Origin: Jimgerdemannia flammicorona
Taxonomy: Eukaryota
Direction of reading: 5' to 3'
Length of the DNA stretch: 34,031 bases
Assembly: GCA_003990765.1 (NCBI GenBank)
Contig: RBNJ01000289.1
Location: 1 to 34,031 of the forward strand
A program made the translations under genes and the position numbers. The notes under the pieces were generated by a model. That model did no database searches. It was not told the DNA's origin and worked only from the letters and a program-made list of their open reading frames with translations. Every line of letters begins with the position of its first letter. Positions within the stretch are counted from its first letter, which is position 1. Of this stretch, positions 2,129 to 30,282 are shown in pieces.

Positions 2129-2134
2129 AATAAA
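2129..2134 (+). terminator. Putative polyadenylation signal AATAAA of the LTR
   Basis: Conserved in all copies ~120 nt downstream of the TATA box. Confidence 0.5.
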
Positions 2135-2495
2135 CCTATTCCATAACCCACAAACCACTCTTAAGTAAATCCACTCTCTGTTAGGTCCCACTCCTAACCC
2201 CATCACGAAATTTCCTAATTGGGTATTATCTGCAGCGATACACCAATTCAACTAAGCTGGCCTTAGTTTCTCGAACTTCCTGAAATATGGAAAATCCTGA
2301 ACATCCAGAACTAGTCTGGGAAAGGACTTTGGTTGAGATGTCAACCCAATCTTGAAATCAATAAGCATAGAGGACATACTCCATATGAAATTGATCTTGA
2401 CCATAAGAAAACGGTCTTCCAGAATATCCAGAACTTCCAGAAAACCCTTCCAGAACTACATAATGGTTACTCTAAAAAGCAACCCTCTTACAACT

Positions 2496-2507
2496 TGGTA
2501 GCAGCAG
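2496..2507 (+). other. Primer-binding site TGGTAGCAGCAG (inferred consensus TGGTAGCAGCGG), initiator tRNA-Met type
   Basis: 3 nt after the LTR end; TGG-T-AGC is complementary to a CCA end with the A1:U72 pair of eukaryotic initiator tRNA; homologues at 12247, 15415 and 20738. Confidence 0.75.
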
Positions 2508-4517
2508 TTTACAATCCAATTCTGCTTCAAGACACTTCCTCACCCCACTACAAACCCCTCTGTGAATTCCTACAAGTTGGTATAAAGCCCAACCTCTGAA
2601 CTGGAATTTATCCGAACCATCTGACAATCTGGAGAGAATTGAACCTGACGTACAAGGACAATTTGACCTCCACACCTGCAACAAGTGGGATAAACTTCAT
2701 TCAAAGAAAGAAGTACTCAGATTAAACCAGCAAATAGGTGAAACCCTATTCATCAAACTCCTTATACTACACCTAGCAAGTCAAGACAAAGAAGGTCTTA
2801 TTGAAGCCTTCTTTACCCTTCTCAACAAGAGTTTTGTCAGCTCCACAAATCCGAGCGACCTAGGACAACCAGCAGCAGTCTTTCTAGCCTTAGTTCCTCA
2901 TGAAGCCCAAGCCTCTATAGCCAAGTGGCTCAACTCTACCGACTTTCACCGCACCAGGACCAAGACTGCCTTATACTACTGATTCCAGAACAGCAAGGCC
3001 TGCCATATCCTTAAAGAAGAAGCAAGAGAAACCCTTCATCAACTACCTGACCCCAAACCTGAAGCAGGCCCTGCTATAGCCCTACCTGAATCCGAAACCA
3101 ATATCGAACCTGAACTTGACTTTGAATTAAGTCCATCTGAAATCAGATATACAACTGATTCTGTCTACTTTGACGCTGAGCAAACCCAATTACACGGGGA
3201 CCAAACCGAAGAAGAAGAGGAGTATCTCACCGAATTCGATCCTGAATACACCACTGAAGGAGACACACACCCATCAGGACAGAATACACCTACACAGCAA
3301 CAAACAGCTATCTATCAAGCCCTCACTCCAGACCCACAACTACTACTCCAGCAGCTTACACAGACTCAAAGAACTCCATCACACTCTGCACCAGTACCTC
3401 AAGTAGTACTAGTAACACCACTACCAGCAGTCCAACCACCTCTAGCAATCAACATGGCGAACCAACAGATTCTTGATCTCACAGCCCAAGTAGCTATAAT
3501 GGCAGCAACTATCACTGCCTTAGCTGAACAGACCCGACCTACCAAAAATCTGAGCCTACCTACCTTCAATGGTACTGCACAAGAAGTCCAAAGCTTCATT
3601 AGTATAGTTGATACCAACTTTGAAGCCAATCAATGGACCAATGAGCGAGTTGCTGACTGCATTCTGATAAACAATCAAGACCACACCCTGGAACAACTCT
3701 TTGCTACCACTACAGCCTATATCCACCAAGTTGTTACATTCTTCTGAGGACCTGCCAAAGAATGGTAGCGAACTCTTCCTGAAAAACCCCTCACATGGGA
3801 TATCCGACCTTCAGTAGTTGCTCAGAATGCAGCAAACAATGCCCCAGGATATGGAGCCCATCCTGCAGCCCCTGGACTCAAACAACTCATGATTGCTCAA
3901 TATTGCAGTGAGACCATGATTGCTGAATCTCGAGTAAAACTCCGCAACCTCAAATTTGATGTACATGGCAAAGAAGAATTCGAAACCTTCTGTACAAAAC
4001 TCGAGTCACTCCTGAACACTGTTGGCCTAGGATATATTACCAATGATGAAGCATGAAATGGTACAAGAGCAGACCATCTATTTGATGCCCTGCCTGAATG
4101 GCTTACTAGAAAATCCGAGAACAAGGCCACTCAGTTGGTTGTGATCACTAACAATGGTGCCTGGCAAGAATCAAGACTATGGTCAAGCGAATCCTAACAG
4201 CTGGACCAATTCTGCCCCGAAGGCAATTCAACAACAAGGAAAAGACTTGGACTAAGAAAGAAGAACCCAAGCATGAAGCATCCCGAGCTCCCTCCACATC
4301 CACCTCTTGGACACCCAGAAATCCTGAACCCACCTAGCCCAGTACCTTCAAGAAACTTACTGAAGGCAAAAGTAATAAACTTCAAAGAAGCGGAGCATGC
4401 TTCTATTGCCGAAAGACAGGACACATGGCCAGAGCCTGCCCCAACCGGAAACCCTGAACAGCAATACGAGCAACTGTTACCACTCTTCACCACCTCAACA
4501 ACCTGACCACCAGAACA

Positions 4518-4925
4518 CTGGACTTTGTCAAGTTAAGACAAACTGCTAAGGCCCCAACCAAAGGAAGTCAAAAAGCAGCTGGATATGACCTGTATATAGC
4601 CGAAGAAGCTACAGTTTTCAACCGAGAAGTCAAACAAGTCTATATAGGAATCAGTATCCAAATCCTTGAAGGACATATTGGAAGAATATGCTGTTGCAGT
4701 GGCCTAGCGCTAAAAGAACTCTCAGTAGAAGGAGGAGTCATTAATGAAGATTACACAGGTGAAATCATTATCCTCATTCGAAACCACAGTTGGATACTCT
4801 TCAAGATCTCTATTGGCTTCTGCATTGCCCAGATCCTATTTGAAAAAATCGAGTCAACCCTGACAGTCAAGGAAGTCCCTGAACTACTACCCACCATCCG
4901 AGGATCCAAAGGATTTGGCTTATCA
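4518..4925 (+). pseudogene. dut: dUTPase domain between nucleocapsid and protease (copy A)
   Basis: LDFVKLRQTAKAPTKGSQKAAGYDL...GRICCCSGLA...GGVINEDYTGEI...IAQILF...RGSKGFG: all five trimeric dUTPase motifs recognisable. Confidence 0.93.
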
Positions 4926-7900
4926 AACAAAGCCCCAGCCCAACCTATCATGAGCAAAGAAGAACAATTCTATAAGAAGATCGAAGATGGATATGTACCA
5001 AGTGGCCGATGCCCTCATGGTATTGGAATGTACTCTTCCCGAATGATTGATGATTGCTTCTCTTGTGTCAACGAACTGGCTCAAAGAAGAACCAATAGGA
5101 GAAAGGCTCCTATAACTAAAATCACTACAATTGGATCAGACAAACTGCTCACTCTTAAAGCTTTTGTCAATGGAGCACCTGTCAAGATTATGGTAGACAG
5201 TAGTGCCTCAGGTAACTTCATCAATGAAGAGACAGCCAACAGACTCAAGGTCTTCACCTCCCCAGTACAGCAAACTCAAGCAGTTGCTACAGCTGATGGA
5301 ACCTCACATGTTATTAGCAAAGAAGTCCGCAATCTACCCTTTCGAATTGGCAACTACCGAGTACATGTTACCCTCCAAATTGTACCACTTCCTGACAATG
5401 AAATCATCCTTGGGACTCTATGGTTAAAACAAGAGAACCCCATAATCGATTGGGTAAACCATTCTCTGACCATCAAGAAAGGACGCCACAACTTCAAACT
5501 ACAAGACGAAAAGGACTCACTCAACTCTAGTGAACCTGGACCAAAGATCACCCACATCAACAAGCTACAACTCAAGAAATTGGCCAAGAAATGCCCTCTC
5601 TTTGCCATCTCCATCCGACCATCCAAAGGAGAACCCAAGAACTCTGAAGAGGATTTTTCCAAAGTTGACAGCTGTGTCAGACCACTACTCCAGAAATTCT
5701 GAGACATATTCCCAAAGAAGCTCCCGAAAGGCCTACCTCCCAAACGAGTAGTAGACCATGCAATCAAGACTATCCCAGATGCCAAACCAGTCTTCAAGTC
5801 AATCTACCACATGTCTCTGAGAGAAATTGATGCACTCAAGAAGGAAATCAACGAACTCCTAGAACAAGGATTCATCAGACCCAGTGTATCACCCTATGGT
5901 GCACCAGTCCTCTTCATTGTCAAGAAAGGAGGAGACCTACGAATGTGCATTGACTACCGCGATCTCAATGAGCAGACCATCAAGAACTGTTGCCCACTAC
6001 CGAGGATTGATGAAATATTTGATAGGCTCACCAACCCACAATTCATGAGCTCCTTTGACCTGCAAAATGGTTACTGGCAAATTACCATGAAAGAAGAAGA
6101 CATCTACAAGACAGCTTTCCGAACACGCTATGGACACTTTGAGTTCCTGGTTATGCCCTTTGGCTTAACTAATGCTCCAGCAACCTTCCAGACACTGATG
6201 AATACCATTCTGCATCTATACCTGGACAAATTCGTTGTTGTCTATATTGACGATATCCTAGTCTTCAGCAAAACCCTGGAGGAACATCTTGAACACCTTG
6301 AACTAGTACTACTGAAACTCTGAGAAAACAGACTCTTTGCAAAACTCAGCAAGTGCGAATTTCTCCTGAAAGAAATTCAATTCCTTGGACACATTGTAAC
6401 ACCAAATGGAATCAAAGTGGACTCCAGCAAAATCTCTACAATCAAAGATTGGCCCACACCCAAGAAGCTGAAAGACCTTCAGTCATTCCTGGGATTAGCA
6501 AACTATTACAGGCGATTTGTTGCCAACTTTGCTAAAATCACTACCACCCTCACCCAAATGACCAAGTACAGCAAGAAACAAGAACAACCCTGGACCATGA
6601 AACAAGAGAAAGACTTCAACAATCTTGTAAATTGGGGACACGAACAAGATACCACCTTTCAAGCACTGAAAGATGCCCTGATAACCACTCCAGTACTTCA
6701 AGCTGCAAACCCTGTCCTACCATATGAAGTCACTACTAATGCCTCTGACCTAGCTCTTGGAGCAGTGCTTATGCAAGAAGGACACCCTGTGGCCTATCAC
6801 TCCCACAAGTTCAATGATGCCGAAATTAACTACGCAACTCATAAGAAGGAAATGCTAGCCATTATAGACACTCTAATCAAATGGCAACCATATCTAGAAG
6901 GAGCACACTTCACTGTATTGACTGACCACAAGTCATTAGTCAACATCAAGACACAGGCTACCCTTTCTTGAAAGCAAGCCAGATGGATGAAAGTCCTCAC
7001 CAACTTTGACTACGAAATCCAGTACCACCCTGGCAAGGAAAATATTGTTGCTGATGCAATCTCCAGACCACTAATCGAAGAAGTTATCCAAACTCTGACC
7101 TTGGTTATCAACACTATCATGGAACAAATCATTGTAGCATGTGTTGATGATAAAGAAGCTCAAGCACTCCGAGAAATCCTGAACAATGATTATGCTCACA
7201 AGCATACCCGGTACAATCAATACCAACTCAAGGATAATGCTATCTACTACAAGGACAGACTGTATGTCCCAAACAACCGAGACCTCCAAAGGACTATCCT
7301 ATTTAAATGTCATGATGCCCCTATAGCTGGACATTTAGGATTTGATAAATGTTACAAAGTTATCTCCCAAAACTTCTATTGGCCCCACATGGCAGATCAG
7401 CTCAAAACCTACATTACTTCCTGTGATGCCTGCCAATGAAACAAGTCCTCAACACTAGCAAAATCTGGCTTACTCCACCCCATTCCAGTACCATCCACAA
7501 ATTGGGAACAAATCTCTATGGACTTCATTGTACAACTACCCCGAACCAAGAATGGGAAAGATGCAATTGTTGTCTTTGTAGACTACCTCAGCAAACAAGC
7601 CCACTTTGTGCCTACTACTACTACTGCAACAGCATCAGACATAGCCATACTCTTGTTTGACAACATCTTCTGCTATCATGGTCTTCCTAAGATCATTGTT
7701 AGTGACCAAGATCCAAAATTCACTAGCCATTTTTGGAAAGCCCTCCATATACACCTTGGAACGAAACTTGCACTATCCACAGCCTTTCACCCTAAAACTG
7801 ATGGCCAAACCAAAAGAATGAACCAAACTCTAGAACAAATGCTAAGGAACTATGTCTCCTACAGACAAGATGATTGGCATGAACATCTCACCGCAGTCAA

Positions 7901-8417
7901 GTTTGTCTATAACAACAGCAAGCAAGCCTCTCTTGGAATGACCCCATTCTTCACTAATACTGGACAAAATTCAAACACCCCTTTGACACTTATCTGAACT
8001 ACTGAAGAATCCTCCACAGTCGAAGCTGTTGAAGAATTCTTACTCCGAATGTGCAATCTAAGCCAGATCGCAATTGAGAATTTATCACGAGCTCCAGAAC
8101 AACAGTCACAGTATATTAACCAACACCGCCGAGAAGAAACTTTTGATATTGGAGAAAAAGTCCTACTAGACATCAGAGGATACCGAGTTGACAACCTCAA
8201 GCACAGACCATCCACAAAGCTGAACAGTAAGTTCATTGGACCATTTGAAGTCATTTTACAAGTCTCTCCAACCTCCTACAAACTGGCGCTACTGGATACC
8301 ATTAAGATTCACCTAGTCTTTAATATTCAATGTCTCAAGTGATACAATGACAATGATGATGAGCTATTTCCAAACTGGACCACCAAACCACCTGCACCTG
8401 TCATCATTAATAACCAA

Positions 8418-8585
8418 GAAGAGTATGAAGTTGAACAAATCCTCAACAAATGTAGCAATAAGAACCATCCTGAGTACCTTGTTAAATGGAAAGGTTACCC
8501 GACCCATGATGCAACCTGGGAACCTAAGACCAATCTTCAGAATGCTACTGATCTAGTTCAGGAATATGATTCCTTGAACAACTAG
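8418..8585 (+). pseudogene. Integrase C-terminal chromodomain (copy A)
   Basis: EEYEVEQILNK...EYLVKWKGYPTHDATWEP, aromatic-cage type chromodomain. Confidence 0.92.
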
Positions 8586-8648
8586 AACCAAATACTCTGC
8601 ACCTATCCATACATACTATATATTACCCTCCTGAACATTATAACTATC

Positions 8649-8951
8649 ATGAACCAAGTCAAGAACTCAGCAAAATAAGACAAGAATACCGAATCCCTGG
8701 AAAAAATAGCAAAACTGAAAGCAAGCCTATTCTCCCTGTACCACTAGTGGGAAACAAGGCATAGACATTTAAGAAGATTCCTTAGAGGAAATTCTCCAGC
8801 AGTGAATGACATCAGAATCACTTCCGGTGCACAGCATTGAACACATGACCCTTTAACATGTGAATCCAACGCGTTAGGCAACTGTACTATAAGCATGCCA
8901 CTTTCTGAGAAAATGGACCTTACCAGACTTTTGACCTCCCAAATGGTGTAA
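8649..8951 (+). pseudogene. Putative ~100-aa third ORF between pol and PPT
   Basis: MNQVKNSAK*DKNTESLEKIAKLKASLFSLYH*WETRHRHLRRFLRG...; those two stops are CAA and TGG in copy D (~26880-27170). Confidence 0.55.
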
Positions 8952-8997
8952 CAACACTAGAACAAATTAGAAGGCCCTGACGAGGATGTCAAAAGCT

Positions 8998-9010
8998 AAG
9001 AAGGGGAGAG
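8998..9010 (+). other. Polypurine tract of copy A
   Basis: AAGAAGGGGAGAG, 1 nt before the 3' LTR; identical at 27218-27230. Confidence 0.92.
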
Positions 9011-9011
9011 T

Positions 9012-11043
9012 TGTAAGCGCACAACCTCCAAGCCACCGAAATTACACGCGACCTCTGAACAAATCTGGAAATCACCTGCTTGATCACGAAGCTGAGTCAA
9101 ACTGAAGTCACAGCGCACAAAGCTGAGTCAATACAAAGTTACAGAATACAAGATTTACACAAACGGAATCTTACCAATCAGGACCAAATGCATATATACC
9201 GAGTACCAAGATGTGTCGAATCAGAGAACCAAAACAAACAACAGCCACAACTTCCAAACACACAAACATGACCACTGAGATCTACAACTGTATCCATGCT
9301 GACATTTGGAATGCCATTGTCAACCAAGCCACACTCCCTCTGCCCCTCATGAATATCCATAGCCTGGCATCCCTCTACTTTGTAGAAGCCTGATGGAATG
9401 CTCTGAACATACTTAGCAAGGCCCACTGAATCGGACAAATCTCAAGCTACTACCAGATCGGCCGCCTCCTGGAAGACATGGTTGAACACCACCATGATAC
9501 AGATATTACCCAGATGTCTCAACACCAGAAGCTCATCACCCGCAAACATCGAGAACTCTTCTATGAGCACAACACCTTTATTCCCCGCCTCTGAGTCACT
9601 ACCAGCAAAATAGTTGCTACCCTGTCCTATGGCCAAATCGATGACATGATACAAGAACTCCACCACAAGTACCTCGAATACGTCCAGACCACAGACAGAA
9701 CCTTCCTGCACCCTGATGACCATATTCTGCAAATGCCTCAAGTCGGATATGCCATGAAGGATGTTTATGATATAATCCACTTTGATGAAGATGAAGTAGA
9801 AGACAATGATCCCTCTGACACCGACATGACCTCTAGCCAAGAATCTCTGCCAACCCTGATCACACCGCCAAACTTGCCGATGAACTTGCAATAGTTCATA
9901 ACTGCATACGAGACTTATTGGGACAATGACCACTAGCATGAATACCAATCCGCATTCACCCCCGATTACTTCAATTACAATGAAGAGACCAGAGAACACA
10001 ACCTGTACCTCCAGACAACCCTCGAGATCGAACCAACAACCCCACCACCTGAGTATGAGCGATATGAACCACAGCCGCCAGCTTACTACAACCCCATGAC
10101 TCATAGTGCTGTAACTTATAGAAGGTACACAGATAGCAAATCTAATGAAAGCAAAGACAATACACCCATCCTTCGCCCACTAACACCTTACCCAGCATAC
10201 GAGACAGATGATGCTATCCTGTAGAATGGAGACGAAGTTCCAATGTACTATTACCTCAGTGAACAAAGAGAAGTAATCTGCATACCACTCTTTCTAGATG
10301 ACTACTTCATCAGAGATGATGCAATCAATGGTGATGTCATCGAAGACTACCCAGACAGTGCCTAAACCCATAAATAGCCTAGCAGTCATAGTATAGTTAG
10401 ATTAGTCTTATATGATGTGACTGTGAACTGACTCAGCAGTCAGACGATCTCTTGACATGTCAGATCACACTTGTACTACGTGACTGCATTCCTACTCAGC
10501 AAGGCACTTAGTGCTATGTCCATATTTAGCATAGTCTAGATAGCCCCTCACTAGTATAAATACCCCCTCTCCCAGACCTCAGAATCTCAGACTTGAACAA
10601 TCTGAACACAACTCCTGAGCACTTCCCCACAATATTCCTTCACACAACTACTCCTAGTATAGCAATATCATGAATAGCAAATAAACCTATTCTATAACCC
10701 ACAAACCACTCTTAAGTAAATCCGCTCTCTGTTAGGTCCCACTCCTAACCCCGTCACGAAATTTCCTAATTGGGTATTGTCTGCAGCGATACACCAATTT
10801 AACTAAGCTGGCCTTAGTTTCTCAAACTTCCTGAAATCTGGAAAATCCTGAACATCCAGAACTAGTCCGGGAAAGGACTTTGGTTGAGATGTCAACCCAA
10901 TCTTGAAATCAATAAGCGTAGAGGACATACTCCATACGAAATTGATCTTGACCATAAGAAAATGGTCTTTCAGAATATCCAGAACTTCCAGAAAACCCTT
11001 CCAGAACTATATAACGGTTACTCTAAAAAGCAACCCTCTTACA
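9012..11043 (+). repeat. 3' LTR of element A (2032 bp)
   Basis: TGTAAG...CTTACA, follows the PPT, followed by TSD GTATT. Confidence 0.96.
9268..10365 (+). pseudogene. LTR-embedded ORF, copy with premature stops
   Basis: 1098 nt, MTTEIYN...DYPDSA*. Confidence 0.9.
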
Positions 11044-15680: not shown

Positions 15681-16614
15681 ATGGATAGCAACAATCAAAC
15701 TGGTGAGCGTACTGGCCAGGGGGGAGATGGTACCTTTGGCTGGCAGCAGGTGGGAAGGAGGAGAGATGGTTTGGGGATGCCAGGGGCCTCAATGGCTAGC
15801 TGAGGTCCTGGGGGTAGAGGGAGGGGTGGTCTGAGGCAGAGAGGAGGGGAGAGATCAACCTTTGCTGACAAGGTCAGAATGGGGAAGATGGCCTCAGATC
15901 TAGATGGTTGGCTGGGCCTGGGGAAGGCATCAACAGCTACTGCTGGGGGACTAGGAGGTGTACCCAGGGGAGTCACTGAGGGTGGGGGAGAAGTGGGAGT
16001 AGGGGCTGGAGATGTGACTGGCGATGGAGCTGTGACTGGAGATCTGGCAAAAAATTCAGATATGATGGCAGTTGATAATTCAGGATAGGGAGTGGGCACA
16101 AGGCATGGAGACCTGGCAGATGGGGTTATGGGCATGGTGTCAGCCCTGTTACTCAAGAAGTCAAGATCGGAATTCGCAGTCATGATGTATTTCTGGGGCT
16201 TGGTAGTGATGACAAGGATGATTTTGAGACTGGTGGTACAGAAGGCAAAGGGAGCAGCATCGGTGAAGTTTTTGAAGAGAAAGAAAGGGGTCGAGGTAGG
16301 GTTTGAGGAGGAAGACGCCTTGCTGGTGGCCTTGGAGAAGAGGGTGATGGTTGGCGAAGTTGTCATCCCTATGGCCAGGTGCATGCACTGGGACCCCTGA
16401 GTGGTATAGTTGACAGTACTGGATCTCTCTACAATGTCGAAGGAGAGGACCAGAGAGTTGGTTGTAGAGGCGATCAGGGAGTATGGAGAGATTGTGGATG
16501 TTGGGTTCAAGGTCTGGGAAGGTACAGAGCTTTAGACTAGTAATGTCGATGTCAGGGTGAGGCTGGCTAGGAGGGAGAGTACAGGGAAGTCGAGAGACTG
16601 GCCAGTGATGCTGA
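15681..16614 (+). pseudogene. LINE ORF1, N-terminal part
   Basis: MDSNNQTGERTG...RG-rich...STFADKVR...RRM-like VKFLKRKKGVEVGFEEE; one frame with a few stops; continues in frame at 29269. Confidence 0.75.
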
Positions 16615-18082
16615 GTGCACAACCTCCAAGCCACCAAAATTACACGTCACCCTCTGAACAAATCTGGAAATCACCTGCTTAGTCATGAAGCTGAGTCAAA
16701 CTGAAGTTACAGCACACAAAGCTGAGTCAACACAAAGTCATGGAATACAAGATTCACATAAACAGAGTCTTACCAATCAGGACCAAATGCATATATACCA
16801 AGTACTGAGATGCATTGAACCAGAAGAACAAAAACAAATAACAACCACAACTTCCAAACACACAAACATGACCACCAAGATCTATACCTATATCTGCACT
16901 GACATTTGGAATGCCATTGTCAACTGAGCCACACCCCCTCTACCCCTCATGAATATCCATAGCCTAGCACCCCTCTACTTCATGGAAGCCTGATGGAATG
17001 CTCTGAACATACTTAGCAAGGCCCACCGAATTGGACAAATCTCAAGCTACTACCAGATCGGTCGCCTCCTGGAAGATATAATCGAATACTACCATAATAC
17101 AGACATTACCCAGATGTCTCAACACCAGAAGCTCATTGCCTGCAAACATCAAGAACTCTTCTACGAGTATAGCACCATTATTTCCCGCCTCTGAGTTACT
17201 ACAGCTAAAATGGTTGCTACCCTGTCTTATGGTCAAATTAACAAGATGATATAAGAACTCAACCACAAGTACCTTGAGTATATTGAAACCACAGACAGAA
17301 CCTTCCCACACCCCAATGATCATATCCTACAAATGCCCCAAGTTGGATATGCCATGAAGGACATCTATGATATAATCCACTTTGATGAAGACAAAGCAAA
17401 AGACAATGATCCCTCTGATGCTGACATGACCTCTAGCCAAGGATCTCTGCCAACCCTGATCACACCACCAACCTTGCCGATGAACTTACAACAATTCATA
17501 ATAACATATGAGACTTATTGGGACAATGACCACTGGCACTAATACCAATCCATATTCACTCCCGATTACTTCAACTATAATGAAGAGACTGGAGAATACA
17601 ATCTATATCTCCAGACAACCCTCAAGATCGAACCAACCACTCCACTACCTGAGTATGAGCGACATGAACCACAGCTGCCAGCTTACTACAACCCTGCAAC
17701 TCATAGTGCTGTAACCTATAGAAGGTATGCAGATAGTGAAACCAATGAAAGCGAAGACAATATACCCCTCCTTCACCCACTAACATCTTACCCAGCATAT
17801 GAGACTGATGATGCCATCTTGTGGGATGGAGATGAAGTTCCAATATATTATTACCTCAGCAAATAAGGAGAAGTAATCTACAAACCACTCTTCCTAGATG
17901 ACTACTTCATCAGAGATGATGCAATCGATAGTGATGTCATCAAGGACTACCCTGACAGTGCCTAAACCTATAAATAGCCTAGCAGTCATAGTATAGTTAG
18001 ATTAGCCTTGTATGACATGACTGTGAACTGACTCAGCAGTCAGACAATCTCTTGATATATCAGATCATACTTATACTATGTG
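16614..18082 (+). repeat. 5' LTR of D, left part
   Basis: agtgcacaacctccaagcc...; resumes at 20166. Confidence 0.92.
16868..17965 (+). pseudogene. LTR-embedded ORF, copy with premature stops
   Basis: 1098 nt, MTTKIYTY...DYPDSA*. Confidence 0.9.
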
Positions 18083-18370
18083 TGTAAGCGCACAACCTCT
18101 AAGCCACAGAAATTATACATCACCCTCTGAACAAGCCACTGAAATCACATGCGACCTCTGAACAAATCTGGAAATCACCTGCTTGATCACGAAGCTGAGT
18201 CAAACCGAAGTCACAGCACACAAAGCTGAGTCAATACGAAGTCACGGAACACAAGATTTATACAAATAGAATCTTACCAATCAGGACTAAATGTATATAT
18301 ACCGAGCACCAAGATGCATCAAATCAGAGAACCAAAACAAACAACAACCACAACTTCCAAACACACAAAC

Positions 18371-19467
18371 ATGACCACTGAGATCTACAACCATATCCAT
18401 GCTGACATTTGGAATGCCATTGTCAACCGAGCCACACCCCCTCTGCCCCTCATGAATTCCATAGCCTGGCACCCCTCTACTTCATGGAAGCCCAATGGAA
18501 TGCTCTGAACATGCTTAGTGAGGCCCACCGAATTGGACAAATCTCAAGCTACTACCAGATCGGCCGCCTCTTGGAAGACATGGTCGAACACCACCATGAT
18601 ATAGACATTACCCAGATGTCTCAACACCAGAAGCTCATCACCTGCAAATATCGAGAACTCTTCTATGAGTATAACACCTTTATTCCCTGCCTCCGAGTCA
18701 CTACCAGTGAAATGGTTGCTACCCTGTCCTATGGCCAAATCGATGACATGATATAAGAACCCAACCACAAGTACCTCAAATATGTCCAGACCACAGACAG
18801 AACCTTCTCGCACCCCAATGATCAAATTCTGCAAATGCTCCAAGTTGGATACACCATGAAGGACATCTATGATATAATCCACTTTGATGAAAATGAAGCA
18901 GAAGACAATGATCCCTCTGATACCAACATGACCTCTAGCCAAGGATCTCTGCCAACCCTGATCACTCCGCCAACCTTGCCGATGAACCTACAACAGTTTA
19001 TAACTGCATACGAGACTTATTGGGACAATGACCACTGGTACGAATACCAACCTACATTCACCCCCGACTACTTCAACTACAATGAAGAGACTGGAGAACA
19101 CAACCTGTACCTCCAGACAACCCTCGAGATTGAACCAACCACTCCACCACCTAAGTATGAGCGATATGAACCACAGCTGCCAGCTTACTATAATTCTGCA
19201 ACTCATAGTGCTGTAACCTATAGAAGGTACACAGACAGTGAATCTGACGAAAGTGAAGACAATACACCCATCCTCCGCCCACCAACACCTTATCCAGTAT
19301 ACGAGACAGACAATGCTATCCTATGGGATGGAGATGAAGTTCCAATGTATTATTACCTCAGCGAACAAGGAGAAGTAATCCGCGAACTATTATTTCTAGA
19401 TGACTACTTCATCAGAGATGATGCAATCGATGGTGATGTCATTGAAGACTACCCAGACAGTGCCTAA
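18371..19467 (+). pseudogene. LTR-embedded ORF in the solo LTR (1-nt deletion near 18457 and a premature stop)
   Basis: 1097 nt; track ORF 18835-19467 is its C-terminal 210 aa. Confidence 0.9.
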
Positions 19468-19690
19468 ACCCATAAATAGCCTAGCAGTCATAGTATAGTT
19501 AGATTAGCTTTGTACGATGTGACTGTGAACTGACTCAGCAGTTAGATGATCTCTTGATATATCAGATCACACTTATACTATATGACTACATTCTGACTCA
19601 GCAAGGCACTTAGTGCTACATCCATATCTAGTATAGTCCAGATAGCCCCTCACTAGTATAAATACCCCCTCCCCCAGACATCAGAATCTC

Positions 19691-19720
19691 AGACTTGAAC
19701 AGACTTGAACAGACTTGAAC
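19691..19720 (+). repeat. Tandem repeat (AGACTTGAAC)x3
   Basis: Three exact 10-bp units; a single unit in the A, C and D LTRs. Confidence 0.9.
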
Positions 19721-20165
19721 AATCCGAACACAACTCCTGAATACTTCTCCACAATACCCCTTCACACAAATACTCCTAGTATAGCAATATCATGAATAGC
19801 AAATAAACCTATTCCTTAACCCACAAACCACTCTTAAGTAAATCTGCTCTCTGTTAGGTCCCATTCCTAACCCTGTCACGAAATTTCCTAATTGGGTATT
19901 GTCTGCAGCGATACGCCAATTCAACTAAGCTGGTCTTAGTTTCTTGAACTTCCTGAAATACGGAAAATCCTGAACATCCAGAACTAGTCCAAAAAAGGAC
20001 TTTGGTTGAGACATCAACCTGATCTTGAAATCAATAAGCATAGAGGACATACTCCATACAAAATTGATCTTGACCATAAGAAAACGATCTTCCAGAACAT
20101 CCAGAATATCCAGAAAATTTTTCCAGAACTACGTAACGATCACCCTAAAAAGTAACCCTCTTACA

Positions 20166-20734
20166 ATGTGACTGCATTCTGACTCAGCAAGGCACTTAGT
20201 GCTATATCCATATCTAGCATAGTTCAGATAGCCCCTCACTAGTATAAATACCCCCTCCCCCAGATCTCAGAATCTCAGACTCGAACAATCTGAACACAAC
20301 AACTCCTGAGCACTTCTCCACAATATCCCCTTATACAACTACTCCTAGTATAGCAATATCATGAATAGCAAATAAACCTATTTAATAACCCACAAACCAC
20401 TCTTAAGTAAATCTGCCCCCTATTAGGTTCTACTCCTAACCCCATCATGAAATTTCCTAATTGGGTATTATCTGCAGCGATACGCCAATTCAACTAAGCT
20501 GGTCTTAGTTTCTTGAACTTCCTGAAATATGAAAAATCCTGAACATCCAGAACTAGTCCAAAAAAGGACTTTGGTTGAGATGTCAACCTGATCTTGAAAT
20601 CAATAAGCGTAGAGGATATACTCCATATGAAATTGATCTTGACCATAAGAAAACAGTCTTCCAGAATACTCAGAACTTCCAGAAAACCCTTCTAGAACTA
20701 TATAACAGTTATCCTAAAAAGTAACCCTCTTACA
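20166..20734 (+). repeat. 5' LTR of D, right part
   Basis: Ends CTTACA, followed by decayed PBS TAGTAGCAGTGG at 20738. Confidence 0.92.
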
Positions 20735-21696
20735 ACTTAGTAGCAGTGGTTTATAATCCAATTCCACTTTAAGATGCTTCCTCATCCCGCTACAAACCCT
20801 TCTGAGAATTCCTCCAAGTTGGTATAAAGCCCAACCTCTGAACTGGAATTTATCCTGAACTATCTGACAATCTGGAGAGAATTGAACCTGATGTACAAGA
20901 ACAATTTGACCTCCACACCTGTAACAAGTGGGACAAACTTCATTTAAAGAAAGAAGTACTCTAGTTAAACCAGCAAATAGGTGAACCCCTATTCACCGAA
21001 CTCCTTACACTACATTCAGCAAGTCAAGATGAAGAAGGTCTTATTGAAGCCTTCTTTACTCTTCTCAACAAGAGTTTTGTTAGCTCTACAAATCTGAGTG
21101 ACTTAAGACAACCAGTAGCAGTCTTTCTAGCCTTAGTTCCTTATGAAGCCCAAGCCTCTGTAGCCAAGTGGCTCAACTCTACTGATTTCCACTGTACCAG
21201 GACCAAGACTGTATTATACTACTGATTTCAGAATAGCAAGGCCCACCATATTCTTAAAGAAGAAGCAAGAGAAACCCTTCATCAACTACCTGACCCTGAA
21301 CCTGAAGCAGGCTCTGCTACAGTCGTACCTGAATCTAAAACCAACACCAAACCTGAACTTGACTTTGAATTCAGTTCATCTGAAATCAGATATACAACTG
21401 ATTCTGTCTACTTTGATGCTGAGCAAACCCAATTACACGGGGACCAAACTGAATAGGAGGAGGAGTATCTCAGTGAATTCAATCCTGGATATACCACCAA
21501 AGGAGAAGTACCTCCATCAGGACAGAATACACCTACACAGCAATAAACAGTTATCTATCAAGCCCTCACTCCAGACCTACAACTACTATTCCAGCAACTT
21601 ATACAGACCCAAAGAACCCCATCACACTCTGCACCAGTACCTCAAGTAGTACTAGTAACATCACTACCAGCAGTCCAACCACCTCCAGTAAACAAC

Positions 21697-24600
21697 ATAG
21701 CAAACCAAGAGATTCTAGACCTCACAGCCCAGGTAGCCATAATGGCAGCAACCATTACTGCCTTAGCTGAACAAACCAGACCTACCAAAAATCTGAGCCT
21801 ACCTACCTTCAATGGTACTGCACAAGAAGTCCAAAGCTTTATTAGTGTAGTTGACACCAACTTCAAAGCCAATCAATGGGCCAATGAGTGAGTTGCTGAC
21901 TGCATTCTGACAAACAATCAAGACCACACTCTGGAACAACTCTTTGCTACCACTACAGCCTATGTCCACTGAGTTGTTATATTCTTCCAAGGACCTGCTG
22001 AAGAATGGTGGCAAACCCTTCCTGAAAAACCCCTCACATGGGATACCTGACCTGCAGTAGTTGCTCAGAATGCAGCAAACAATGCCCCAGGATATAGAGC
22101 CCATCCTGCAGCCCCTGGACTCAAACAACTCATGATTGCCCAATACTGCAGCAAAACCATGATTGCTGAATCCCGAATAAAACTCTGCAACCTCAAATTT
22201 GATATACATGGCAAAGAAGAATTCAAAACCTTCTGTACAAAACTTGAGTCACTCCTAAATACTGTTGGCCTAGGATATATTGCCAATGATGAAGCACAAA
22301 ATGGTATAAGAGCAGACCATTTATTCAATGCCCTGCCTGAATGGCTTACTAGAAAAATCTGAGAACAAGGCCACCCAGTTGATTGTGATCACCAACAATA
22401 GTGCCTGGCAAGAATCAAGACTATGGTCAAGTGAATCCTAACAGCTGGACCAATTCTGCCCTGAAGACAATTCAATAACAAGGAAAAGACTTGGACCAAG
22501 AAAGAAGAACCCAAGCATGAAGCATCCCGAGCTCCCTCCACATCCACCTCTTGGACACCTAGAAATCATGAACCCATCTAGCCAAGTATCTTCAAGAAAC
22601 TTACTGAAGATAAAAGGAATGAACTTCAAAGAAGTGGAGTATGCTTCTATTGCTGAAAGACAGGACACATGGCCAGTGCCTGCTCTAACTGAAAACCCCA
22701 AACAGCAACAAGAGCAACTATTATCACTCTGTACCACCTCAACAACCTGACCACCAGAATACTAGACTTTGTCAAGTTAAGACAAACTGCTAAGGCCCCA
22801 ACCAAATGAAGTCAAAAAGCAGCTGGATATGATCTGTATGCAGCCAAAAAAGCTACAGTTTCCAACTGAGAAGTCAAACAAGTCTACACAGGAATCAGCA
22901 TCCAAATTCCTGAAGGACATGTTGAAAGAATATGCTGTCGCAGCAGCCTAGCATTGAAAGGACTCTCAGTAGAAGGAGGAGTTATTGACAAGGACTATAC
23001 AGGTGAAGTCATTATCCTCATATGAAACTACAGTTGGAAACCCTTCAAGATCCCTATTGGTTTCTGCATTGCCCAGATCCTATTCAAAAAAATCGAGTCA
23101 ACCCTGACAGTCAAGGAAGTCCTTGAACTACTGCCCACCATCCAAGGATCCAAAGGATTTGGCTCATCGAACAAGGCCCCAGCCCAACCTACCATGAGCA
23201 AAGAAGAACAATTCTATCAGAAGATCGAAGATGGATATATATCAAGTGGCTGATGCCCTCATGGCATTGGAATGTACTCTTCCCAAATGATTGATGACTG
23301 CTTCTCTTGTGTCAATGAACTGGCTCAAAGAAGAATCAATAGAAGGAAAGCTCCTATAACTGAAATCATCACCATTGGATCAGACAAACTGCTCACACTT
23401 AAGGCTTTTGTCAACCAAGTACCTGTCAAGATTATGATAGACAGTGGTGCCTCAAGCAACTTCATCAGTAAAGAGACAGCCAACAGACTTAAGGTCTTCA
23501 CCTCTCTGGTACAACAAACTCAAGCAGTTGCTATAGCTGATGGAACCTCACATGTTATTAGCAAAGAAGTCCATAATCTACCCTTCTGAATTGGTGACTA
23601 CCGAGTACATGTTACCCTCTAAATTGTACCACTTCCTGACAATGAAATCATCCTTGGGACTCCATGGTTAAAATAAGAGAACCCTATGATTGATTGGGTA
23701 AACCATTCTCTGACCATCAAGAAAGGACGCCACAACTTCAAACTGCAAGGTGAAAAGGACTCACTTAATTCTAGTGACTCTGGACCAAAGATCACCCACA
23801 TCAACAAGCTACGACTTAAGAAATTGGCCAAGAAATGCCCTCTCTTCGCCATCTCCATCCATCCATCCAAAGGAGAACCCAAGAACTCTGAAGAAGATTT
23901 TTCCAAAGTTGACAGCTGTGTCAGACCACTACTCCAGAAATTTTGAGACATATTCCCAAAGAAGCTTCTGAAAGGCCTACCTCCTAAACGAGCAGTAGAC
24001 CATGCCATCAAGACTATCCCAGATGCCAAACCAGCCTTCAAGTCAATCTACCACATGTCTCCGAGAGAAATCAATGTACTCAAGAAAGAAATTGATGAAC
24101 TCCTAGAACAAGGATTCATCAGACCCAGTATATCACTCTATGGTGCACCAGTCCTATTTATTGTCAAGAAAGAAGGAGACCTGTGAATGTGTATTGACTA
24201 CTGTGATCTCAATGAACAGACCATCAAGAACTGTTGCCTACTACCAAGGATCAATGAAATATTTAATAGGCTCACCAATCTGCAATTCATGAGCTCCTTT
24301 GACCTGCAAAATGGTTACTGGCAAATTGCCATGAAAGAAGAAGACATTTACAAGACAGCTTTCTGAACTCGCTATGGACACTTCGAGTTCCTGGTTATGC
24401 CCTTTGGCTTAACTAATGCTCTAGCAACCTTCCAGACACTGATGAATACCATTCTGTATCCATACCTGGACAAATTCATTATTGTCTATATTGACGACAT
24501 CCTAGTCTTCAGCAAAACCCTGGAGGAACATCTTGAACACCTTGAACTAGTACTACTGAAACTCCGAGAAAACTGACTCTTTGCAAAACTCAGCAAGTGT

Positions 24601-26808
24601 GAATTTCTCCTAAAAGAAATTCAATTCCTTGGACACATTGTCACTCCAAATAGAATCAAAGTGGACCCCAACAAAATCTCTGCAATCAAGGATTGGCCCA
24701 GACCCAAGAAGCTGAAAGACCTCCAGTCATTCCTGGGATTAGCAAACTATTACAGATGATTTGTTGCCAACTTTGCTAAAATTACTACTGCCCTCACTCA
24801 AATGACCAAGTGTAGCAAGAAATAAGAACAACTCTGGACCATAAAACAAGAGAAAGACTTCAACAATCTTGTAACTTGGGGACCTGAGCAAGATACTGCC
24901 TTTCAAGCACTGAAAGATGCCCTGATAACCACTCCAGTACTTCAAGCAGCAAATCCTGCCCTACCATATGAAGTTACTACTGATGCCTCTGATCTAGCTC
25001 TTGGAGCAGTGCTCATGCAAGAAGGACACCCTGTGGCCTATCACTCCTGTAAGTTCAATGATGCTGAAATTAACTATGCAACCCACGAGAAGGAAATGCT
25101 AGCCATTGTAGATACTTTGATCAAATGGTGACCCTACCTAGAAGGAGCACACTTTACTGTATTGACTGACCACAAGTCATTAGTCAATATCAAGACACAG
25201 GCTACCCTTTCTCGAAAGCAAGCCAGATGGATAAAAGTCCTCACCAACTTTGACTATGAAATCCAGTACCACCCTGGCAAGGAAAATATTGTTGCCAATA
25301 CAATCTCCAGACCGCCCATTGAAGAAGTTATCCAAACTCTCACCTTGGTTACCAACACTATCATGGAGCAAATTATTGCAGTATGTGCCGATGATAAGGA
25401 AGCTCAAGCACTGCAAGAAATCCTGAATAGTGATGATGCTGACAAGCATACACAGTATCATCAATACCAACTAAAGGACAATACTATCTACTACAAAGAC
25501 AGACTGTATGTCCCAAACAACCGAGACCTCTGAAGGACTATCTTATTCGAATGTCATGATGCCCCTACAGCTGGACATTTAGGATTCGATAAATGTTATA
25601 AAGTTATCTCCTGAAACTTCTATTGGCCCCGCATGGCAGATCAGCTCAAAACCTACATTACTTTCTATGATGCCTGCCAATGAAACAAGTCCTTAACACT
25701 AGTAAAACCTGGCTTACTTCACCCTATCCTAGTGCTATCTGTGAATTGGGAACAAATCTCTATGGACTTTATTATACAACTACCCTGAACCAAGAATGAG
25801 CAAGATGCAATTGTTGTCTTGGTGGACTATCTCAGCAAACAAGCTCACTTTGTGCCAACTACCACTACTGCAATAGCATCAGATATAGCTACACTATTAT
25901 TTGACAACATCTTCCACTATCATGGTCTTCCTAAGATCATTGTTAGCAACCGAGACCTGAAATTCACCAGCCATTTTTAGAAAGCCCTCCATATATACTT
26001 TGGAACAAAACTTGTACTATCTACAGCCTTTTATCTAGAAACTGATGGCCAAACTGAAAGAATGAACCAAACTCTAGAACAAATGCTAAGGAACTATGTT
26101 TCCTACAGACAAGATGACTGGCATGAACACCTCACTGCAGTCGAGTTTGCCTATAATAATAGCAAACAAGCCTCTCTCGGAATGAGCCCATTCTTCACCA
26201 ATACTGGACAAAACCCAAACACCCCTTTGACACTCATCTGAACTACTGAAGAACCCTCTATAGTCGAAGCTGTTGAAGAATCTAAGCCAGATCACAATCA
26301 AGAATTTATTGTGAGCTCAAGAACAACAGTCACAGTATGTTAACCAACACTACCAAGAAGAAACTTTGATATTAGAGAAAAAGTTCTACTGGACATTAGA
26401 GGATACCGAGTTGACAACCTCAAGTACAGACCATCTACAAAGCTGAACAGCAAGTTCATTGGACCATTTGAAGTCATTGCACAAGTCTCTCCAATCTCCT
26501 ACAAATTGGTGCTACCAGATACTATTAAGATTCACCCAGTCTTCAATGTCCAACATCTCAAGCGATATAATGAGAATGATGATGAACTATTCCCTAACTG
26601 AACCATGAAACCACCTGTACCTGTTATTATTAATGACCAAGAAGAGTACGAAGTTGAACAAATCCTCAACAAATGCAGCAACAAGAACCACCCTGAGTAC
26701 CTTGTCAAATGGAAAGGTTACCCAATCTATGATGCCACATGGGAACTCAAGACCAACCTCCAGAATGCTACCAACCTAGTTCAGGAATATGATTCCTTGA
26801 ATAATTAA
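21697..26808 (+). pseudogene. gag-pol: gag-dUTPase-pol polyprotein of copy D
   Basis: Same domains as A; PR IDSGA and RT YIDD; small deletions at ~26281 and ~26365; chromodomain in track ORF 26605-26808. Confidence 0.95.
22762..23169 (+). pseudogene. dut: dUTPase domain (copy D)
   Basis: AAGYDLY...CRSSLALKG...GGVIDKDYTGEV...IAQILF...GSKGFGSS. Confidence 0.93.
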
Positions 26809-27217
26809 AACCAAATACTCCGTACCTATCCATACATATCATATATTATCCTCCTGAACACTATAATTATCAAAAAATCAAGAACTCAGCAAAACAAGAC
26901 AAGAATACTGACCCTCTGGAAAAATAGCACAACTGAAAGCAAACCTATTCTCTCTGTACCACTGGTGAGAAATAAGGCATAGATATTTAAGAAGATTCCT
27001 TAGAGGAAATTCTCCAGCAGTGAATGATATCAGAATTACTTCTGGCATATGGCATTGAATACATGACCCTTTAATATATGAATCCAACACATTAGGCAAC
27101 TATACTATGAGCATGCCACTTTCTGGAAAAAAATAGCCTTTACTAGACTTTTGACCTCCTAAATGGTGTAACAATACTAGAACAAAATTAGAAGGCCCGA
27201 CGAGGACATTGAAAGCT

Positions 27218-27230
27218 AAGAAGGGGAGAG
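27218..27230 (+). other. Polypurine tract of copy D
   Basis: AAGAAGGGGAGAG before TGTAAG at 27232. Confidence 0.92.
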
Positions 27231-27231
27231 T

Positions 27232-29268
27232 TGTAAGTGCACAACCTCTAAGCCACTGAAATTATATGTCACTCTCTGAACAAATCTGGAAATCACCTGC
27301 TTGGTCATAAAGCTGAGTCAAACTGAAGTCATAGCACACAAAGCTGAGTCAACACGAAGTCACAGAACACAAGATTCACACAAATGGAGTCTTACCAATC
27401 AGGACCAAATGCATATATACTGAGTACTGAGATGCATCGAATCAGAAGAACAAAAACAAACAACAACCACAACTTCTAAACACACAAATATGACTACCGA
27501 GATCTACACCTATATCTGTGCTGACATTTGGAATGCCATTGTCAACCGAGCCACACCCCCTCTGCCCCTCATGAATATCCATAGCCTAGCACCCCTCTAC
27601 TTCGTGGAAGCCCAATGGAATGCTCTGAACATACTTAGCGAGGCCCACCAAATCAGACAAATCTCAAGCTACTACCAGATCAGTTGCCTCCTAGAAGATA
27701 TGATCAAACACCACCACAATACAGACATTACCCAGATGTCTCAACACCAGAAGCTCATCACCTATAAACATCAAGAACTCTTCTACGAGTATAGCACCAT
27801 TATTCCCCACCTCCGAGTTACCATAGCCGAAATGGTTGCTACCCTATCCTATGGCCAAATTGACAACATGATACAAGAACTCAACCACAAGTATCTTGAG
27901 TATGTCGAAACCATAGACAGAACCTTCCCACACCCCAATGATCATATCCTGCAAATGCCCCAAGTTGGATATGCCATAAAGGACATTTATGATATAATCC
28001 ACTTTGACGAAGACAAAGCAGAAGACAATGATCCCTCTGACACTGACATAACCTCTAGCCAAGGATCTCTGCCAACCCTGATCATACTGCTAATCTTGCC
28101 GATGAACTTACAACAATTCATAACAACATACGAGACTTATTGGGACAATGACCACTGGCACGAATACCAATCTGCGTTTATTCCCAATTACTTCAACTAT
28201 AATGAAGAGACTGGAGAACATAACCTATATCTCCAGACAACCCTCGAGATTGAACCAACCACTCCACCACCTGAGTACAAGCGACATGAACCACAGCCAC
28301 TAGCTTACTACAACCCTGCAACTCATAGTGCTATAACCTATAGAAGATATGTAGATAGTGAAACCAATGAAAGCAAAGATGATGCACCCCTCCTTTACCC
28401 ACCAACACCTTACCCAGTATACAAGACTGATGATACCATCTTGTGGGATAGAGATGAAGTTCTAATGTATTATTACCTCAGTGAACAAGGAGAAGTAATC
28501 CATGAACCACTCTTCCTAGATGACTACTTTATCAGAGATGATGCAATCGATAGTGATATCATCAAGGACTACTCCAACAGTGCCTAAACCTATAAATAGC
28601 CTAGCAGTCATAGTATAGTTAGATTAGCCTTATACGACAAGACTGTGAACTGACTCAGCAGTCAGACGATCTCTTGACATGTCAGATCACACTTGTACTA
28701 CATGACTGTATTCTAACTCAGCAAGGCACTTAGTGCTACATCCATATCTAGCATAGTCCAGATAGTCCCTCACTAGTATAAATACCCCCTCCCCCAGACC
28801 TCAGAATCTCAGACTCGAACAATCCAAACACAACAACTCCTGAGCACTTCCCCACAATATCTCCTCACACAACTACTCCTAGTATAGCAATATCATGAAT
28901 AGCAAATAAACCTATTTAATAACTCACAAACCACTCTTAAGTAAATCTGCCCCCCATTAGGTCTCACTCCTAACCCCATCACGAAATTTCCTAATTGGGT
29001 ATTGTCTGCAGCGATATGCTGATTCAACTAAGCTGGTCTTAGTTTCTTGAACTTCCTGAAATACAGAAAATCCTGAATATCCAGAACTAGTCTGAAAAAG
29101 GACTTTGGTTGAGACGTCAACCCGATCTTGAAATCAATAAGCATAGAGGACATACTCCATATAAAATTGATCTTAACTATAAGAAAACAGTCTTCCAGAA
29201 TATCCAGAACTTCCAGAAAACCCTTTTAGAACTACGTAACAGTTATTCTAAAAAGTAACTCTCTTATA
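27232..29268 (+). repeat. 3' LTR of D (2037 bp)
   Basis: TGTAAG...CTTATA; LINE sequence resumes at 29269. Confidence 0.95.
27490..28587 (+). CDS. Intact 365-aa LTR(U3)-embedded accessory ORF, unknown function (acidic, His/Tyr-rich, PPxY motif)
   Basis: Only uninterrupted copy; start, stop and length are conserved among LTR copies; no family recognised; expression not shown. Confidence 0.8.
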   Translation: MTTEIYTYICADIWNAIVNRATPPLPLMNIHSLAPLYFVEAQWNALNILSEAHQIRQISSYYQISCLLEDMIKHHHNTDITQMSQHQKLITYKHQELFYEYSTIIPHLRVTIAEMVATLSYGQIDNMIQELNHKYLEYVETIDRTFPHPNDHILQMPQVGYAIKDIYDIIHFDEDKAEDNDPSDTDITSSQGSLPTLIILLILPMNLQQFITTYETYWDNDHWHEYQSAFIPNYFNYNEETGEHNLYLQTTLEIEPTTPPPEYKRHEPQPLAYYNPATHSAITYRRYVDSETNESKDDAPLLYPPTPYPVYKTDDTILWDRDEVLMYYYLSEQGEVIHEPLFLDDYFIRDDAIDSDIIKDYSNSA

Positions 29269-30251: not shown

Positions 30252-30282
30252 GATGGGGTCTCTATTGCAACATTTTTTCAAT

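Follow-up and report, generated by a model that had tools for sequence, protein, structure and literature searches.

The long terminal repeats (LTRs) of retroelements normally hold only control signals and are treated as non-coding modules, which annotation pipelines mask and to which models of element biology assign no proteins. An open reading frame (ORF) contained wholly in the U3 portion of the LTR is that of mouse mammary tumor virus (MMTV) sag, which encodes a membrane glycoprotein translated from RNAs that are either spliced or transcribed from an internal promoter, and genes that overlap U3 are found in lentiviruses and foamy viruses; among the proteins of the latter, the transactivator Tas contains an acidic activation region and is expressed from an internal promoter of its own, and Bet acts against a cytidine deaminase. 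Here we describe a 365-codon ORF that lies inside the LTRs of a Ty3/Gypsy chromovirus in a 34,031-nucleotide (nt) stretch of DNA from Jimgerdemannia flammicorona (NCBI GenBank assembly GCA_003990765.1, contig RBNJ01000289.1, positions 1 to 34,031 of the forward strand; hereinafter, the window). The best overall explanation of the sequence comparisons presented below is that this ORF is probably a real LTR gene that was kept by purifying selection while the element family was active.

The frame resembles MMTV sag in that it is a long ORF (about 320 amino acids in MMTV compared to 365 here) located wholly within the LTR and upstream of the promoter, in that a copy is present in both LTRs, and in that it is accessory to gag-pol. 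The two differ in that sag belongs to a vertebrate retrovirus whereas the element at hand is a fungal-type chromovirus, the protein of which is acidic and has no conserved hydrophobic segment; moreover, the protein does not belong to the MMTV Sag family, given that it matches no Pfam family at E-values up to 10. Lentiviral nef and foamy-virus tas and bet are, likewise, accessory genes at the 3' end that reach into U3, and they are the models for two functions proposed below, but in these genes the overlap with U3 is partial and the start lies 5' of the polypurine tract, whereas the frame described here is internal to the LTR, with 258 nt preceding it and 190 nt between its end and the TATA box; Pfam and PDB sequence searches detected no similarity to nef, tas or bet.

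In LTR retrotransposons, extra ORFs are found in the interval from pol to the 3' LTR (PMC5408684). The ORF3 and env-like ORFs, namely, those of Athila/Tat, the errantiviruses and the bdelloid elements Vesta and Juno, share with the present frame the restriction to individual families, unclear origin and, often, separate expression, and the LTRs of the rotifer elements are given there as 159-551 bp (PMC5408684). The location, however, is different: in the two elements of the window, pol ends at 8585 and 26808, respectively, the polypurine tract of the second element ends at 27230, and the frame is found downstream of the tract, within a 2-kb LTR. The dUTPase-bearing fungal chromoviruses (PosPlaTy3-3 of Postia placenta, elements of Phanerochaete chrysosporium and Tmt1 of Tuber) have the same backbone as the element described here but, in the accessible portion of the relevant article, no LTR-embedded gene is described for them (PMC2864245); according to the legend to Figure 3 of that article, some fungal elements have an 'add. 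ORF' of unknown function (PMC2864245). The accessible part of a survey of Tuberaceae chromoviruses, similarly, mentions no LTR-embedded gene (PMC12581995). A full-text literature search, subscription journals excluded, returned no description of such a gene for Ty3/Gypsy or other LTR retrotransposons, and the matches to 'LTR ORF' were either work on MMTV (for example, PMC2118998) or uses of the phrase for gag-pol ORFs. The LTR gene is outside every known family tested and, judging by its position, would work like a retroviral U3 gene. Being located inside the LTR, the ORF is carried twice by every element and persists where only a solo LTR remains; as an initial annotation made from the sequence had indicated, it is present in both LTRs of the elements and in the solo LTR of the window.

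The LTR frame and its coding signal

The window contains two elements of the family, denoted E1 and E2, a solo LTR inserted into the 5' LTR of E2, and an older LTR split by E1. In all five long LTR copies, the frame occupies LTR positions 259-1356, upstream of the TATA box, and both this placement and the ORF lengths given in the initial annotation (1097 nt for the solo LTR, 1098 nt for each of the other four) were reproduced. The copies of the ORF are as follows.

718..1815, plus strand: copy in the E1 5' LTR, 1098 nt, with five premature stops (codons 20, 54, 85, 223 and 319)
9268..10365, plus strand: copy in the E1 3' LTR, 1098 nt, with six premature stops (codons 42, 54, 109, 209, 223 and 319)
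16868..17965, plus strand: copy in the E2 5' LTR, 1098 nt, with six premature stops (codons 20, 42, 109, 129, 225 and 333)
18371..19467, plus strand: copy in the solo LTR, 1097 nt, with one base lost at ORF base 88 and one stop (codon 129)
27490..28587, plus strand: copy in the E2 3' LTR, the only open one, encoding 365 amino acids (P0001)
10..330, plus strand: partial copy in the older LTR split by E1, codons 258-364

The open copy spans 365 codons from the ATG and 387 codons from stop to stop. The description of this copy as intact holds with respect to its being open but it is not pristine, with 36 derived replacements. All copies in the window are decayed relics. The premature stops are, as originally noted, mostly the result of single transitions: 17 of the 18 differ by one transition from the codon of the other copies, and the remaining one is a transversion (GAA>TAA).

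Several features of the frame are those of a coding sequence. Shuffling the LTR 1000 times with its dinucleotide content preserved produced longest open runs of 91 codons on average and of no more than 177, compared to the observed 387. When codon usage was scored against a table derived from the element's own pol gene, the ORF frame had log2-odds of +0.223 per codon, compared to values from -0.202 to +0.044 for the five remaining frames and from -0.03 to -0.10 for the rest of the LTR. The base composition of the codon positions is also nearly identical to that of pol (at position 1, A.33, C.26, G.25 and T.16 in the ORF versus.34,.24,.26 and.16 in pol). Together with the evidence of selection and the diverged relative described below, which make up four independent lines in all, these observations indicate that the active element probably carried a translated gene inside its LTR.

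Evidence of selection comes from a contrast of the McDonald-Kreitman type, based on two element lineages in one window and 73 fixed sites. Pre-insertion changes were defined as those at sites where the two LTRs agree within E1 and within E2 but the elements differ, and post-insertion changes as the differences between the two LTRs of the same element; because both LTRs are copied from a single template, the latter differences arose after insertion and are neutral. Within the ORF, 42.75 of the pre-insertion changes are synonymous and 30.25 are replacements (42 of the 73 sites are third codon positions), compared to 60.5 and 120.5, respectively, of the post-insertion changes, so that the ratio for the contrast is 0.36 (Fisher p=2.3e-4). 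When the same contrast was computed in all six frames, it was below 1 only in the ORF frame and in the antisense frame with the same wobble positions (0.49), the other four frames yielding 1.41-2.34. The initial annotation had called for setting CpG and CpA sites apart in such a comparison, and the signal persisted both at CpG-related sites (11 synonymous and 6 replacement pre-insertion changes versus 28 and 54 post-insertion, p=0.028) and at the other sites (32 and 24 versus 35 and 64, p=0.011). In E1, changes common to the two LTRs affect 9 CpA sites, compared to the 0.34 expected from independent hits, which implies that the shared changes were inherited rather than produced by parallel hits.

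The distribution of the changes along the LTR follows the same division. Post-insertion decay is even (8.8% upstream of the ORF, 8.2% within it and 6.6% downstream), whereas the pre-insertion differences are patterned, amounting to 3.9% upstream, 6.6% in the ORF and 1.8% downstream, and those in the ORF are mostly in third codon positions.

The identical length of 1098 nt, by contrast, cannot be taken as a sign of selection. Only 7 gap events were detected in 6525 aligned columns of the internal regions of E1 and E2 and, with indels this rare across the elements, only about one would be expected in the ORF anyway, so the equal length is weak evidence and does not attest to frame conservation. 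As a separate observation, codons 112-113 (27823-27828) read ACC AGC (Thr-Ser) in E1 and ACA GCC or GCT (Thr-Ala) in the E2 lineage, with ATA GCC now present in the open copy; this pattern resembles a one-base shift restored within four bases, that is, a frame-preserving double indel, and three substitutions also fit.

The protein and its relatives

P0001 has no domain that could be recognized, in accord with the initial annotation: there was no match in NCBIfam or PDB sequence searches, and the lack of Pfam families extends to its two relatives, P0002 and P0003 (E-values up to 1). In the ESM Atlas, the best scores were 0.87, with 64-83 of 256 features shared, and the matches, to short F-box and unnamed clusters, are below the level of evidence. 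The structure prediction suggested in the initial annotation as a route to the function was uninformative, given that two AlphaFold models had mean pLDDT (predicted local distance difference test) values of 32.7 and 30.7 and were unusable for fold comparison; the sole feature common to both of these low-confidence models is the presence of predicted helices in residues 4-141.

As encoded by the decayed open copy, P0001 is a strongly acidic orphan protein, with 57 aspartates and glutamates compared to 19 lysines and arginines, and is rich in aromatic residues (46 tyrosines, phenylalanines and tryptophans). In the open copy, arginine codons were lost to CpG decay, and P0003 has arginine in several positions where the window copies have glutamine, cysteine, histidine or stop codons, which shows that these were originally arginine codons and, therefore, that the N-terminal part of the active protein was more basic. 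The C-terminal two-thirds of P0001 contain conserved aromatic and acidic blocks; those shared with P0002 include FPHPxDHILQMPQV, LQQFITTYETYW, YFNYNExTGEHNLYLQTT and QPLAYYNPAT, and both proteins end with an acidic-hydrophobic tail, EPLFxDxYFIRDDxID.

No relatives other than these two turned up when 1.84 billion representatives were scanned in full with HMMER and 5.8 billion protein clusters were searched by word index. The HMMER pass detected no separate host homologue, and JGI metagenome contigs, scanned with both a protein pattern and a back-translated motif, yielded no relatives. P0002, encoded in a 998-nt contig, aligns to residues 115-364 of P0001 with 151 of 250 positions identical and 201 of 250 positive, that is, at about 60% identity, with two 2-residue gaps and a common end point, and is open across its 247 recorded residues. 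We compared it to the outcome of neutral evolution in three sets of 500 simulation runs, in which sequences were evolved to the identity level of P0002. The simulated sequences acquired a mean of 3.9-5.5 stops, with zero stops in 2, 1 and 6 of 500 runs, respectively, and the fraction of positives reached at most 0.784 in the 1500 runs, compared to 0.804 observed for P0002. P0003 is a 128-amino-acid sequence that is 81% identical; its end coincides with the CAA>TAA stop of two window copies, so that it is probably another decayed copy.

Identification of the ORF with the genes typical of retrotransposons was also considered. Identity with gag was rejected because the element has a separate gag with a CCHC knuckle, and a tblastn search of the element's internal region with P0001 gave no match. 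An env-like identity was set aside, given that inspection showed neither a signal peptide nor a conserved hydrophobic segment; where P0001 has LIILLILP, P0002 has LITPPTLP. The PPPEY sequence at residues 258-262, which resembles a late-domain motif, is replaced by PLSEY in P0002 and so is not conserved.

Element structure, LTR signals and nested insertions

The map of the window was derived from BLAST comparison of the named LTR with the window, an alignment of the five LTR copies (A1) and direct reading of the junctions.

462..11043, plus strand: element E1, with LTRs at 462-2492 and 9012-11043 and gag with the CCHC knuckle at 4398
4458-8585, plus strand: E1 pol, encoding dUTPase, protease (PR), reverse transcriptase (RT), RNase H (RH), integrase (INT) and chromodomain in a single frame with five in-frame stops
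16612..29268, plus strand: element E2, target repeat GATGC/GATGG
16612-18082 plus 20166-20734, plus strand: E2 5' LTR, interrupted by the solo LTR
20735-27231, plus strand: internal part of E2
27232..29268, plus strand: E2 3' LTR, 2037 nt, aligned end to end with the other copies and followed by the GATGG repeat
18083-20165, plus strand: solo LTR inside the E2 5' LTR, with an ATGTG target duplication
10-461 and 11044-11607, plus strand: older LTR of the same family, split by E1, with a GTATT target duplication

The LTR termini, read at the junctions, are TGTAAG...CTTACA. A polypurine tract, AAGAAGGGGAGAG, is located at 27218-27230, directly 5' of the E2 3' LTR; a primer-binding site of the TGGTAGCAG type is found 3' of the 5' LTRs, and 5-bp target-site duplications accompany E1 (GTATT), the solo LTR (ATGTG) and E2 (GATGC/GATGG). 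The Pfam domains of pol follow, in one frame (4458-8342), the order RVP_2/gag-asp_proteas, RVT_1 (1e-29), RT_RNaseH_2 (5e-31), Integrase_H2C2 (9e-19), rve (6e-9) and SH3_Tf2-1, and a chromodomain (PF00385) is present at the integrase C-terminus in E1 (8343-8585, E=6.9e-19) and, in E2, at 26602-26808 (E=6.9e-17). The E1 pol extends over 4.1 kb without a frameshift. The CCHC knuckle of E1 gag, CFYCRKTGHMARAC, has a counterpart in E2 at 22642, where it is interrupted by a stop. Thus, the LTR ends with their target duplications, primer-binding site and polypurine tract, the pol order, the chromodomain and a CCHC gag separate from the LTR frame are all those of a Ty3/Gypsy chromovirus, and the assignment made in the initial annotation was confirmed by the chromodomain match (E=7e-19) together with the PR-RT-RH-INT order. 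A dUTPase domain (PF00692, E=1.1e-27) occupies residues 30-156 of the 4458-5702 frame, preceding the protease at residues 219-343; this location of the dUTPase N-terminal to the protease is an arrangement described for fungal chromoviruses (PMC2864245).

The ORF is flanked, within the E2 3' LTR, by three blocks, the first and the last of which appear to carry control signals.

27232..27489, plus strand: promoter-like 5' part of the LTR, with two TGAGTCA in a 31-nt tandem (27314 and 27345), CCAAT (27395) and ATATATA (about 27412); 10 fixed E1/E2 differences in 256 sites
28588..28776, plus strand: conserved spacer from the stop codon to the TATA box, holding the nested-insertion sites at LTR positions 1473 and 1481; 2 fixed differences in the 113 sites where all four copies are comparable
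28777..28910, plus strand: putative genomic-RNA promoter and poly(A) signal, with TATAAATA at 28777-28784 and AATAAA at 28905-28910

The TGAGTCA sequence is, presumably, a site of the AP-1/Gcn4 type. An A/C-rich leader separates the ATATATA, about 70 nt before the ATG, from the ATG at 27490, and the promoter-like motifs are invariant in all five LTR copies in the A1 alignment. The TATAAATA and AATAAA motifs occur at the matching LTR positions in the E1 5' LTR, the E1 3' LTR and the solo LTR. The frame is located wholly inside the LTR, upstream of TATAAATA, and its placement in U3 is read from the position of the TATA motif alone; the promoter, poly(A) and U3/R roles of all these motifs are putative, being assigned by motif and position, and the frame could be either a self-contained LTR gene or part of R.

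E1 and the solo LTR are nested, having entered older LTRs of their own family in independent events and at sites separated by only 8 bp (following LTR position 1481 in the case of E1 and 1473 in that of the solo LTR). Both are co-oriented with the target LTR, are located about 65-75 nt upstream of TATAAATA and are bordered by clean 5-bp duplications (GTATT at 457-461 and 11044-11048; ATGTG at 18078-18082 and 20166-20170). The proximity of these sites suggests that integration may be targeted near the LTR promoter; Tf1, a chromodomain-bearing element, reportedly targets Pol II promoters, which would be a parallel. The solo LTR alone contains a duplication of about 40 nt of its first bases (18083-18150) and a 20-nt insertion just past the TATA region, at about 19660-19680.

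The remainder of the window includes debris of the same or a related family, namely, an inverted LTR piece at 11608-11775 (minus strand, LTR positions 175-333) and a 5'-truncated LTR (positions 1295-1969) that continues into 177 nt of internal sequence at 14703-15587, as well as a separate dUTPase fragment at 12923-13492 (PF00692, E=2.1e-5). The sequence into which E2 is inserted (about 15588-16611 and 29269-34031) has the opposite GC skew. To the right of E2, there are ORFs of a non-LTR retrotransposon, with an RVT_1 match at 31613-32749 (E=2.2e-22) and a weak endonuclease/exonuclease/phosphatase match, under the Pfam cut-off, at 30469-30960.

Alternative explanations, function and implications

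The claim of the initial annotation that the LTR encodes a dedicated accessory protein stands in so far as the frame is genuinely coding and appears to have been under purifying selection, both between the two lineages and relative to the 60%-identical P0002, but it does not extend to the open copy, which is a decayed relic. Several observations weigh against a gene maintained by selection. The open copy itself displays neutral decay, with 20 synonymous and 36 replacement changes; the parent of E1 already had at least two stops in the gene, which is therefore not required in cis and may be dispensable; beyond P0002 and P0003, the sequence collections that were searched contain no relatives, and these two are single protein fragments from contigs of about 1 kb; the selection test is confined to two lineages in one window; and the low-confidence structural models offer no fold that would support any function.

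Some of these points would also be expected if a coding sequence had been picked up into the ancestral LTR and carried since then without serving the element, too little time having elapsed. The movement of E1 with a broken copy, the decay of all five copies in the window, the near absence of the family from protein databases and the lack of a function readable from the sequence are all compatible with such a passenger. We nevertheless regard this scenario as improbable given the frame-specific synonymous bias before insertion, the openness of P0002 over 247 residues at 60% identity with the same stop position, conservative replacements in P0002 in excess of all 1500 neutral simulations, and the lack of a separate host homologue among the 1.84 billion representatives. 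That the frame is a product of chance or composition in a non-coding U3, where an A/C-rich strand avoids stops, could be argued from the GC skew of about -0.25 and AT skew of about +0.2 and from four of the five copies being closed. This view can hardly be reconciled with an open run more than twice as long as in any shuffle, coding periodicity equal to that of pol, the frame-specific synonymous excess and the existence of a relative at the protein level, and is very improbable.

It is, similarly, very improbable that the copy at 27490-28587 remains open because the host uses this locus. Since the split from its sister LTR, this copy has accumulated 56 derived changes without a single stop, whereas the sister, the E2 5' LTR, has 16 synonymous changes, 27 replacements and 6 stops, and in the other three LTRs stops account for 11 of the 124 derived changes; the chance of observing no stops in 56 changes is about 0.005 (0.911^56), before allowing for the five copies examined. 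The ratio of synonymous to replacement changes in the open copy is, however, neutral, and arginine codons and conserved residues that are kept in P0003 and the other copies have been lost. Among the CGA-type codons that are stops elsewhere, the open copy has CAA at codons 42 and 54 and still has CGA at codons 20 and 109. With the neutral replacement ratio, the open copy looks to be open by luck rather than by selection on the locus. A different kind of alternative accepts the gene but places it in a leader: the genomic RNA would start at the CCAAT/ATATATA block, the frame would be the first cistron in a long R, and TATAAATA would be internal or incidental. The upstream block is promoter-like in layout and invariant across the copies, the ATG is preceded by the A/C-rich leader, and the U3/R border is read from motif positions only, all of which would fit. 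Nevertheless, R would be about 1.45 kb, far beyond the usual length, the four copies that include this region all have, at matching LTR positions, a strong TATAAATA and, 128 nt further on, the only AATAAA, which is the classic U3-R layout, and translation of gag would require re-initiation after a 365-codon frame, so that we consider a leader gene unlikely.

If, as we favor, the frame is a gene, the most straightforward, if tentative, option for its expression is a dedicated mRNA of about 1.5 kb, initiated in the promoter-like block and terminated at the AATAAA of the LTR; under this option, any LTR, even a solo one, would amount to a complete gene on its own. Expression from a subgenomic or spliced RNA that reads the 3' LTR copy, as in the case of retroviral U3 genes, is a less likely possibility. 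No RNA run was listed for the sequence; two runs, presumably of another kind, that contain a small share of it (0.07 of sampled words) yielded short contigs with unrelated flanks and LTR-to-LTR joints, uninformative as to transcript ends or splicing, and the much higher cover of the last ~560 nt of the LTR compared to the frame carries no weight because contig depth is not a valid ranking of regions.

The pattern of decay bears on the mode of action. C>T and G>A account for 187 of the 243 singleton changes in all LTR copies and affect mainly CpA and CpG, and the transition-to-transversion counts in the ORF between sister LTRs are 73:2 in E1 and 104:2 in E2; as read from these base changes, the decay of the LTRs carries the signature of repeat-directed C-to-T mutation or of methyl-cytosine deamination. 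On the E1 branch, 9 of the 13 changes common to both LTRs are at CpA, that is, the inherited changes bear the C-to-T signature, which indicates that mutated copies still served as templates. Both E1 LTRs share stops at codons 54, 223 and 319, with TAG at the latter two. Given that shared non-CpG hits are almost all inherited, the stops at 223 and 319 were inherited from the parent of E1, the gene of which was already broken, with at least two stops, when it gave rise to the new copy. Therefore, the protein either acts in trans or is dispensable, and was not needed in cis for that transposition. Provided that the frame is indeed a gene, we consider it reasonably likely that the protein acts in trans for the family, letting a broken copy move.

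What the protein does can be proposed only with caution. It might be a regulator or adaptor, perhaps a transactivator of the LTR that operates through its acidic-aromatic tail, which resembles activation regions; we view this as possible but unlikely. An antagonist of the host C-to-T or methylation defence is a slightly weaker candidate, made plausible by the copies being riddled with C>T and G>A changes and by the presence of a dUTPase in the element. The combined proposal, that each LTR is a self-contained gene serving the family in trans, by activating the LTR promoter or by blunting defence, so that a full element would produce the protein from both of its LTRs and solo LTRs would persist as scattered expression units, is a doubtful one; if true, the self-contained LTR gene would be the fungal retrotransposon counterpart of the Tas/Bet-type genes, in a new place.

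A selected LTR gene would imply an accessory function beyond gag-pol, a trait thought to be typical of complex retroviruses. In families of this kind, LTR length would reflect coding capacity rather than regulatory sequence alone, and solo LTRs, which are counted as inert scars, could stay protein-expressing loci. The contrast between pre-insertion and post-insertion changes in LTRs is a cheap test that is applicable to other families with long LTRs. Should the protein act on transcription or genome defence, it would open a way to study the persistence of chromoviruses in fungi where repeats are methylated and mutated.

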